DNA of 9,831 bases from the IMG/VR virus record IMGVR_UViG_2645727901_000016, one strand, 5' to 3'. The notes under the pieces were generated by a model. The model was not told where the DNA came from. It saw only the letters and a program-made list of their open reading frames with translations, and did not search any database. The DNA is from a virus (taxonomy: Duplodnaviria; Heunggongvirae; Uroviricota; Caudoviricetes). Both the position numbers and the translations under genes were made by a program. Shown here piece after piece: positions 4,354 through 5,801 of the stretch (positions within the stretch are counted from its first letter, which is position 1; the number at the start of each line of letters is the position of its first letter).

Positions 4354-4502
4354 TGCAGTGGAAAGTCATCAATGGTTGGTACTGCGTTACAGCTTGCGGG
4401 CTGATGAGCTGGAAGTTTCGCACGCTGGGTGAAGGCATGAACTGGGTATTCGTCAGCAAGCTGGCGGTAAAAACGGAAATGGATATGGGGGTTAGCAAGT
4501 GA
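4354..4502 (+). CDS. small hypothetical protein (49 aa, Trp/Cys-rich), first ORF of the plus-strand early operon
   Basis: ATG at 4354 preceded by AGAGAGG 5 nt upstream. Its stop overlaps the GTG start of the next gene (GTGA). The longer 4221 start in the ORF track would run across two operators and is unlikely. Confidence 0.3.
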
Positions 4503-5491
4503 GCGAATTAGCAATTATCGAAATTGCGCCAGATATGGCGCCAAGCATTTACGTAGAAAACGGTCTGGAAAAGTTCCTCGAACAGATCCGCGAAAGCGTT
4601 AACGAAGTTCCTGACCTGAGCACTGCCAAAGGTCGTGCCCGCATTGCATCTCTGGCAGCACAGGTTTCTCGCAGTAAAACAGCAGTTGAAAAGCCTGGTC
4701 GAGATTACCTTCGTCATCTGAAAGAAGCCGTCAAACCTGCTGAGGCTGAACTGCGTCGATTTGTATCAGCTTGCGATGAGATGCGCGATGAGGTTCGCCG
4801 CCCACTTACCGAATGGGAGGCCGAGCAGGAACGCATCAAGGCTGAAGAAGCCATGAATGTGCTGCACGCCGAAGCACTGGAGATGAATATCAAGTTCGAT
4901 CAGGAGCGGGCTGCCAAGTTCGAAGCGGATCACGAGATGGCCCTGCTGATGAACGACGCATTCGACCGAGAAGCGAAGGCGAAAGCAGAAGAAGCAGAGC
5001 GCCAGCGCATTGCTCATGAAGAAGAGTTGAAGCGCCAGGCGGAAGAAAAGGCCAGGCGTGAAGCTGAAGAGAAAATAGAGCGTGAACGCGCTGAATCTGC
5101 CCGTCGTGAGGCTGAATTAAAGCTCAAGGCAGAGCAAGCAGAGCGTGACCGCATTGCCACAGAGCAAAAAGCTGAAGCAGAGAAGAAGGAAGCCGCTGAT
5201 CGTGCCGAGCGTGAAAAGCAGGAAGCTATCGAAGCCGAGAAGCGCAAATCACAGGAAGAAGCAGATCGAATTAAGCGCGAGGCCGAAGCGAAAGAAGCAG
5301 CACGCCTGGCAGAAGAGAAACGCATCGCTGACGAAGCGGCAGCACGCGCTGCTGATGTAGAGCACCGTCGTGCCATTAATGCTTCTGCGGTTCAAGCGCT
5401 AATTGACCAGGGTATTCCTGATGACTGGGCGAAGGAATGTGTTGTCGCCATCGCTCGCGGGAAAGTACCCGCAACGACCATCAACTACTGA
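4499..5491 (+). CDS. hypothetical coiled-coil protein with an ER/K-rich central helix (330 aa)
   Basis: GTG start with GGGGG 7 nt upstream. N-terminal ~110-aa domain, then ~200 aa of E/K/R/A-rich low-complexity helix, then a ~50-aa C-terminal domain. The antisense ORF 5014-5376 is a shadow of this low-complexity region. Confidence 0.7.
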   Translation: MSELAIIEIAPDMAPSIYVENGLEKFLEQIRESVNEVPDLSTAKGRARIASLAAQVSRSKTAVEKPGRDYLRHLKEAVKPAEAELRRFVSACDEMRDEVRRPLTEWEAEQERIKAEEAMNVLHAEALEMNIKFDQERAAKFEADHEMALLMNDAFDREAKAKAEEAERQRIAHEEELKRQAEEKARREAEEKIERERAESARREAELKLKAEQAERDRIATEQKAEAEKKEAADRAEREKQEAIEAEKRKSQEEADRIKREAEAKEAARLAEEKRIADEAAARAADVEHRRAINASAVQALIDQGIPDDWAKECVVAIARGKVPATTINY

Positions 5492-5498
5492 GGTGACT

Positions 5499-5801
5499 AT
5501 GAACATTAAGCAATTCAATAACCTAAAAAAAATAGCATCTCAGTTCGGCAATGACTACCAGCTGTCATCTGAACTGTACGACCGCCACGTTGAGCTGATC
5601 GAAGCAGTTGCTGGTTGCGAAATGGAAGAGTCATTCGAGCGAGCACTGCTGCGCTCAGGGGTACGCAAAGAAATCATCGACGCAGCGCGTGAAAGTTGCG
5701 AGTTCGAAGAGGTCGTGTCGACATTTAAGCGCGAGCTGACCGGCATCATCGCCCGTCTTGACCTAGCTGACCAGATCGACAGCAAAAGGAATGCGGCATG
5801 A
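5499..5801 (+). CDS. hypothetical protein (100 aa) immediately upstream of recE
   Basis: ATG at 5499 with GAGGTG 5 nt upstream. The 5403 start in the ORF track would overlap the previous gene by 89 nt. Stop overlaps the recE start (ATGA). Confidence 0.55.
   Translation: MNIKQFNNLKKIASQFGNDYQLSSELYDRHVELIEAVAGCEMEESFERALLRSGVRKEIIDAARESCEFEEVVSTFKRELTGIIARLDLADQIDSKRNAA

Follow-up and report, generated by a model that had tools for sequence, protein, structure and literature searches.

We examined a 9,831-nucleotide stretch of viral DNA (IMG/VR record IMGVR_UViG_2645727901_000016, referred to below as the window) and, within it, three small genes that lie between a promoter/operator region and a recE-like gene. 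We consider it likely that these genes come first behind the promoter in the early-left (PL) operon of an epsilon15-like phage, and that the operon carries an Agt protein and a Gam-like anti-RecBCD protein ahead of recE and recT. The original prediction for this DNA, made from the letters alone, had recognised three plus-strand open reading frames (ORFs) downstream of the promoter/operator region as operator-proximal early-left genes, and all three are present. It had also found no family by which to name them. For Pfam, NCBIfam and PADLOC this stands, scans of the three proteins against these collections and PDB sequence searches having returned nothing significant, but each protein has a family in PHROGs and counterparts in annotated phages. 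The three genes, with lengths in amino acids (aa), are:

4353..4502, plus strand: ORF1, 49 aa, gp37 family (phrog_898, match E 4e-31)
4499..5491, plus strand: ORF2, 330 aa, Agt/Mog (phrog_1376, match E 4.6e-102), with a GTG start over the ORF1 stop
5499..5801, plus strand: ORF3, 100 aa, gp36 family (phrog_856, match E 5e-43)

ORF1 and ORF2 have the GTGA at 4499-4502 in common, a gap of 7 nucleotides (nt) containing GAGGTGA separates ORF2 from ORF3, and ORF3 overlaps recE through the ATGA at 5798-5801, in keeping with the coupling of the 100-aa protein to recE that had been pointed out earlier. Because of these overlaps and short spacers, and because the genes share a strand, we regard all three as real, co-oriented and coupled.

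The evidence for a Gam-like protein comes from ORF3, whose family very probably belongs to the Gam superfamily. In hhalign comparisons gp36 aligned with the Gam family collinearly from end to end at a probability of 80-89% (E 1.5e-5 to 2e-6), and a low-stringency profile alignment covered residues 15-96, with the C-terminal two-thirds giving the strongest similarity. Column-shuffled Gam profiles gave 11.1 +/- 2.2 with a maximum of 18.6, against 33.2 observed, a value that none of the 200 shuffles reached. The relationship was also recovered reciprocally in a set of 16,257 ORFs and proteins that was enriched for Gam (125 entries): the first 14 out-of-family matches of a gp36 hidden Markov model (HMM) were all members of the lambda Gam family (E 6e-5 to 9e-4), while the first outside match of a Gam HMM was a gp36 member (E 2.7e-5), followed by GamL ORFs, and no unrelated ORF ranked between. 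By eye, gp36 and lambda GamS are collinear and share MN.., YQ.L, L.R.G..K.I..A.....EF.E and IA....IDS.

Known structures and families were compared as well. ORF3 itself had no match to the Pfam Gam family PF06064 (gathering score 25 bits) even at E<=10, and the best gp36-family member scored E 0.004, below the gathering cut-off. In a Foldseek search with gp36, GamS (2uv1) came at rank 4 with 28% identity, the highest among the matches listed, and was not significant. The AlphaFold2 model, which is of low confidence, has helices at residues 3-38, 45-52, 57-65 and 69-99. Like lambda Gam (GamS, 2UUZ/2UV1), gp36 is about 100 aa long, acidic and predicted to be all-helical with a long N-terminal helix, and its gene directly precedes the recombination genes. 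The sizes and isoelectric points are close (gp36, 11.4 kDa, 100 aa and 4.9; GamS 98 aa and 5.0; GamL of phage phi80, 93 aa and 4.8), although the sequence of the N-terminal helix is not conserved. Gam acts as a dimer that mimics DNA and inserts its N-terminal helix into the RecB channel (PMC5218532), and a 2025 survey gives Gam and GamL similar predicted folds and reports that GamL blocks RecBCD (PMC12315714). Compared directly, gp36 and phi80 GamL show no similarity; they are linked only through lambda Gam, to which GamL is connected via the N-terminal helix (profile probability 92%). Gp36 is therefore probably a third sequence type of Gam-like protein. As its profile homology, reciprocal HMM matches, size, acidity and gene position all fit Gam, we regard it as a probable inhibitor of RecBCD that would act by the Gam mechanism. 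Of the functions put forward earlier for these genes (kil-, sieB-, gam- or abc-type), gam thus finds support in profile homology for the 100-aa protein, and the other genes do not follow suit; nothing in the analyses run supported superinfection exclusion by any of the three. The gp36 family is small and confined to Enterobacteriaceae, with 150 proteins at E <= 0.001 in a word-indexed search and 29 representative clusters among 1.84 billion in an exhaustive one.

ORF2, previously regarded as unnameable, can be assigned as the orthologue of phi80 Agt, with which it aligns over its full length at 64% identity (E 4e-119). The phi80 record names agt as "anti-toxin for Gam" with the note "Mog (modifier of Gam)", and notes that the next gene, gamL, is "toxic without Mog". 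A tblastn search with the N-terminal 158 residues found the family in 183 phage records, phi80 agt being the best match, and tblastn confirmed homologues in more than 590 viral contig stretches. Members include Sf6 gp33 and unnamed proteins of Klebsiella, Erwinia, Yersinia, Pseudomonas and Vibrio phages.

The build of Agt is that of a conserved N-terminal part and a small C-terminal end joined by a charged helix. Residues 1-115 form the conserved core, with the highest conservation over residues 43-115 (mean majority fraction 0.92), where the motifs VPD..T.KGR, PG and R.PLT are invariant. Residues 43-156, within which the strongest conservation of the protein falls, are also predicted to be helical, with regular hydrophobic residues and three conserved prolines. 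The E/K/R/A-rich helix had been put at some 200 uninterrupted residues, and on both counts this needs correction: the stretch is residues 157-290, or 134 aa (80% E/K/R/A, 11 hydrophobic residues and almost no hydrophobic seam), and AlphaFold2 predicts helices at 43-209 and 224-303 separated by a low-confidence break at 210-223 and followed by a small helical end. The predicted local confidence (pLDDT) of the helix is 85-93 over residues 111-190 and 72-88 over 231-290, and the first ~40 residues are poorly predicted. A resemblance of the N-terminus to DUF1351 or Gp157 proteins, which stand ahead of annealases in Gram-positive phages, gained no support, as both families were absent from the results of a PDB profile search and of Pfam scans with 12 diverse N-terminal domains.

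Single alpha-helix (SAH) domains of the ER/K type occur, for example, in myosin VI and X and in caldesmon. The central part of ORF2 shares with them its 134-residue stretch of 80% E/K/R/A, dense opposite charges at i/i+4 (25 and 26 pairs in the two orientations over residues 106-295) and almost no hydrophobic seam. It differs in belonging to a phage protein and in being a helix by prediction only, with the low-confidence break already described. Helix length varies among ORF2 homologues, as would be expected of a spacer: among close homologues (79-99% identical) we found indels of 7, 11, 18 and 22 residues, most of them in the central helix (~188-265), which bring the total lengths to 308-348 aa, and in some homologues the sequence of the helix has been replaced wholesale. 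No tandem DNA repeats were found beneath the helix. The C-terminal 40 residues (291-330), the small UBA-like helical end, fall into subtypes across the family, all ending in I.Y. The last 35 residues (5390-5488), AVQALIDQGIPDDWAKECVVAIARGK, bear a weak likeness to domain III of RuvA (the RuvB-binding domain) and to UBA domains: the top Foldseek match was RuvA domain 3 (24 columns, 42% identity, E 2.8) and PDB UBA domains gave E 0.16-0.43, and Pfam UBA_7 matched the C-termini of 2 of 20 members at E 0.027, all below significance.

Several database names would instead make the 330-aa protein a TolA-like component of the cell envelope ("TolA protein", "colicin import membrane protein", "cell envelope biogenesis protein"). 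We give this next to no credence and have ruled it out, as ORF2 has neither a membrane anchor nor a Pfam TolA domain. It contains no hydrophobic segment, the maximal Kyte-Doolittle mean over 19 aa being 0.98 and the longest uncharged run 11 aa, and the likeness to TolA is confined to the low-complexity E/K/A helix, where conservation within the protein is comparatively low. Agt homologues are thus often mislabelled TolA because of their composition.

Another way to view Agt is through its neighbours, and for this we used 80 IMG/VR loci with an Agt homologue. In most of them the gene 3' of Agt starts 2-9 nt downstream, and this gene encodes GamL in 34, orf65 in 14, a CIII-like protein in about 12, gp36 in at least 4 and lambda Gam in 2. 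About 70 of the 80 have a RecT, Bet, Erf or RecE gene within the next ~1.5 kb. The joints of the agt cassette can be placed on the sequence. The 5' joint (window 4486-4502) coincides with the start codon of the gene that follows gp37, with shared sequence GGGGGTKAGCAAGTGA, and the 3' joint (window 5483-5504), TAYTGAGGTGNNTATGAAC, is kept across different partner families, the partner genes behind it all beginning with Met-Asn (loci L002, L004, L008, L009 and L012). In epsilon15, phiV10, Tyrion and a Klebsiella phage there is no agt and gp37 abuts gp36. The three genes had been taken as one module. The comparative loci show that the core of the locus is gp37, gp36 and recET, with agt an optional cassette present in ~40% of loci. 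Since many GamL and gp36 loci lack it, we describe Agt as an optional accessory heading recombination modules and not as an obligate antitoxin. The orf65 product (phrog_7311) is a 65-aa protein that is coupled to Agt in Arf/Erf-type modules (locus L008, 4480-4677, and 13 IMG/VR loci, among them L030, L033 and L046), and it showed no similarity to Gam, GamL or gp36.

The closest parallel to the window is phi80 (Lula), in whose PL operon an orthologous Agt gene stands directly 5' of a ~95-aa acidic Gam-like gene across a 7-nt spacer with a Shine-Dalgarno sequence, and where, as in the window, a nuclease/annealase pair comes after the Gam-like gene. The order gp37-agt-gam-like-recE-recT therefore parallels (kil)-agt-gamL-rec-exo of phi80 and kil-gam-bet-exo of lambda. 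The two phages differ in the partner of Agt, which in phi80 is GamL and in the window is of the gp36 type and not directly alignable with GamL, and in the recombinases, RecE/RecT in the window and Exo with a RecT-like protein in phi80. Unlike that of phi80, the window operon begins with gp37 and has no N gene and no kil. Epsilon15 itself (gp37-gp36-gp35(RecE)-RecT) is of the same lineage and has the same operators, promoter, gp37 and gp36 but no agt, whereas the window carries an additional cassette of 993 bp, attached at the start codon of whichever gene follows gp37.

A scheme for how these genes may work together can be drawn from this layout. On loss of the repressor, at induction or infection, PL would transcribe gp37-agt-gam-like-recE-recT, and gp36, being acidic and helical, would disable RecBCD as Gam does. 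Linear and rolling-circle phage DNA would then be protected and its ends left for RecE/RecT. Agt, translated just 5' on the same mRNA, might temper or direct this inhibition, and we suppose that it modulates the consequences of RecBCD inhibition because phi80 Agt is annotated as relieving the toxicity of GamL. Given its build, with an ER/K helix of variable length in the middle, Agt may serve as a tether or spacer that keeps its conserved N-terminal domain (~115 residues) and a small, UBA-like C-terminal one ~20 nm apart. As its partner, the small protein encoded downstream or a conserved factor of the host is more likely than a recombinase, because the types of recombinase vary among Agt loci.

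Several observations weigh against this scheme. Homology alone is no proof that gp36 inhibits RecBCD. Agt is carried by only 32 of 75 GamL loci and 31 of 79 gp36 loci, GamL genes 92-99% identical to that of phi80 are found both with and without it, and modules with no recognisable Gam also have Agt, ahead of CIII-like or orf65/Arf/Erf genes. The only functional statement on Agt is the phi80 GenBank note, beyond which a literature search on Agt/Mog, whose reach did not extend to the phi80 genome paper, found nothing. The N-terminal domain is predicted at a pLDDT of 33-67 over residues 1-70, and 12 diverse N-terminal domains gave no match in Pfam or in a PDB profile search. Much of this would suit the main rival, in which Agt acts independently of Gam as a general accessory heading recombination modules, for example as a scaffold or tether on a conserved host factor of DNA metabolism or as an anti-defence protein, so that the "antitoxin" phenotype in phi80 would be indirect. 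Besides the CIII-like and orf65/Arf/Erf genes, Agt precedes Sak4 modules, Gam-like genes stand without Agt in ~60% of loci, and members of the family occur in phages of Enterobacteria, Pseudomonas and Vibrio. The modules that the Agt C-terminus weakly resembles, UBA domains and RuvA domain III, are protein-binding modules, but that likeness is below statistical significance (E 0.1-3). Against independence from Gam, a gene of the Gam, GamL or gp36 type is the very next one, 2-9 nt away, in at least 40 of the 80 Agt loci, the coupling junction is conserved, and the phi80 record explicitly links agt and gamL. The data fit both views, and we hold a Gam-independent Agt to be possible, though the less probable of the two.

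A rather improbable alternative applies to ORF3: gp36 could be a helical accessory of RecE/RecT, comparable to RacC, Arf or Abc1, sharing just ancestry or shape with Gam and not inhibiting RecBCD. Its translational coupling to recE by the ATGA overlap would suit such a role, as would the confinement of the family to recET-type modules of Uetakevirus-like phages, and similarity in the gp36-Gam alignment is lowest over the N-terminal helix, the element that Gam inserts into the RecB channel. On the other side, the reciprocal profile matches of gp36 are specific to Gam, its length, acidity and gene slot are those of Gam, and it has no similarity to RacC or to the N-terminal region of RecE. The related idea that ORF2 and ORF3 are pieces split off from the long N-terminus of Rac RecE, or a homologue of RacC, was likewise dropped, no similarity having been found. 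A broader scheme, which we offer as quite speculative, would make Agt a general "safety device" for small phage inhibitors of host proteins, in which a ~20-nm ER/K tether docks a conserved host factor at one end and the co-translated small protein at the other and restricts where or when RecBCD, and perhaps other host targets too, is inhibited; in parallel gp36 would be the third sequence type of the Gam fold, further to the four anti-RecBCD types listed in PMC12315714. This would explain why the partners differ in type (Gam, GamL, gp36, orf65 and CIII-like) yet share one junction, and why Agt is dispensable but repeatedly acquired.

The first gene of the operon, ORF1, has the 49-aa length given earlier, although it starts at 4353 and not at 4354, and has four Trp and two Cys residues; it is basic (isoelectric point 9.2) and has a Shine-Dalgarno sequence, AGAGAGG, ahead of its start. 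Whether it is translated at all had been named as one point on which the earlier proposal could fall, and its codon statistics mark it as a real translated gene: over seven homologues in the plus frame, pS was 0.43, pN 0.076 and dN/dS 0.12, against 0.32-3.5 for dN/dS in the other five frames, and variable columns fell at codon positions 3, 1 and 2 in the numbers 18, 6 and 6. The core MQWkiINGWyCVTACGlMSwKfrTL is common to 94 homologous ORFs, the first ~35 residues being conserved and the tail variable, and gp37 heads the same operon in epsilon15, phiV10, Tyrion, phiv142-3 and Klebsiella prophage-like phages. In the record of Enterobacter phage Tyrion (locus L011, 2905-3117) an antisense ORF is annotated over gp37; the codon-position statistics speak for the frame of gp37 and do not support the antisense ORF.

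The position of gp37, a small protein specific to its lineage, corresponds to that of Kil in lambdoid phages. It is accordingly conceivable, though we think it unlikely, that gp37 is a Kil-like inhibitor of host cell division (FtsZ). The case for this is one of gene position only: in loci without Agt, Kil lies directly 5' of GamL (~76 nt away in most of those listed) and gp37 lies directly 5' of gp36 in 48 of 48, and gp37 is small, conserved and the first to be expressed. Comparison by hhalign with lambda/Sf6-type Kil, phi80-type Kil and CIII gave no profile similarity (probability <=2%, and <=0.3% for the Kil families), gp37 and Kil fall in different PHROGs, and gp37 showed no similarity to orf65 or to the Rac small proteins. 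No membrane segment was found in it. Matches to designed "Bagel" propellers in the PDB were set aside, as they arise from summed repeats and no single stretch passes.

The surroundings identify the window, on the similarity of its genes and sites, as the immunity and early region of a temperate phage or prophage of the epsilon15-like (Uetakevirus) group. At the DNA level, positions 4130-5860 match a prophage of E. coli E2348/69 (98% of the length, 90% identity), and the Salmonella phages epsilon15, SPN1S and SPC32H match in part, with synteny kept. The other features that bear on the operon are:

3532..4128, plus strand: cI-type repressor with two HTH_3 domains (Pfam HTH_3; synteny with the epsilon15 repressor)
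4187-4201, 4249-4263 and 4325-4339: left operator region, three palindromes TTACCNNNNNGGTAA (motif count and epsilon15 annotation)
4221..4249, plus strand: PL-like sigma-70 promoter TTGACA-17-GATTAT, strong and close to consensus (promoter scan, 10/12 matches)
5798..6619, plus strand: recE-like PD-(D/E)XK exonuclease, nuclease domain only (Pfam DUF3799 E 1.5e-20; phrog_412 exonuclease VIII)
6616..7497, plus strand: RecT annealase (Pfam RecT E 1.8e-31)
minus strand: replication genes, a RuvC-like resolvase and a small regulator (annotated neighbours)

The repressor can be equated with that of epsilon15 and SPC32H, and its operators would control the operon. The palindrome TTACCNNNNNGGTAA has seven copies in the window against 0.1 expected by chance. 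The three left operators correspond to annotated repressor sites of epsilon15, and the middle one (4249-4263) overlaps the -10 element of the promoter; the remaining copies are three at the divergent promoter and one at 1269-1283. This seventh copy, TTACCTTTTTGGTAA, stands well apart from the two early promoters, its neighbours being the RuvC-like gene and a replication gene with a DnaT domain, and the epsilon15 annotation has a repressor site at the equivalent position.

Early-left genes on the plus strand run in the order gp37, agt, gam-like, recE, recT, an AlpA-type excisionase, a PerC-like activator and an MT-A70 methylase. The longest RecT ORF begins at 6589, within recE, and the ATG at 6616 overlaps the recE stop (ATGA). 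The start of RecT is probably 6616, because of this overlap and because the E2348/69 annotation shows a 4-nt overlap. For phiV10 (locus L010, 3452-5212) the annotation shows a single RecE-RecT fusion protein of 586 aa, while in the window the two have separate, overlapping genes. On the minus strand, at 2129-2803, the window has a calcineurin-like metallophosphatase gene where epsilon15 carries a cytosine-C5 DNA methyltransferase, an exchange that is a mosaic replacement in the early-right operon. An Rfam scan of the window found no RNA family.

The arrangement described here is recognisable as that of phi80, in a different phage lineage, and is no new kind of system; our findings refine annotation and overturn no current understanding. 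In the database records and literature that we searched, the gp36 sequence type was not described and no link between gp36 and Gam was found, and such a link would change the annotation of a protein that is "hypothetical" in many genomes. RecBCD is central to bacterial defence, and its inhibitors are sensed by several abortive-infection systems. A Gam-like gp36 would extend the catalogue of these inhibitors, in epsilon15-type phages of Salmonella, E. coli, Citrobacter and Klebsiella. The most worthwhile lead is the Agt family, which is widespread, has a build that is unusual for a phage early protein, and is tractable for learning how phages limit self-harm from RecBCD inhibition.

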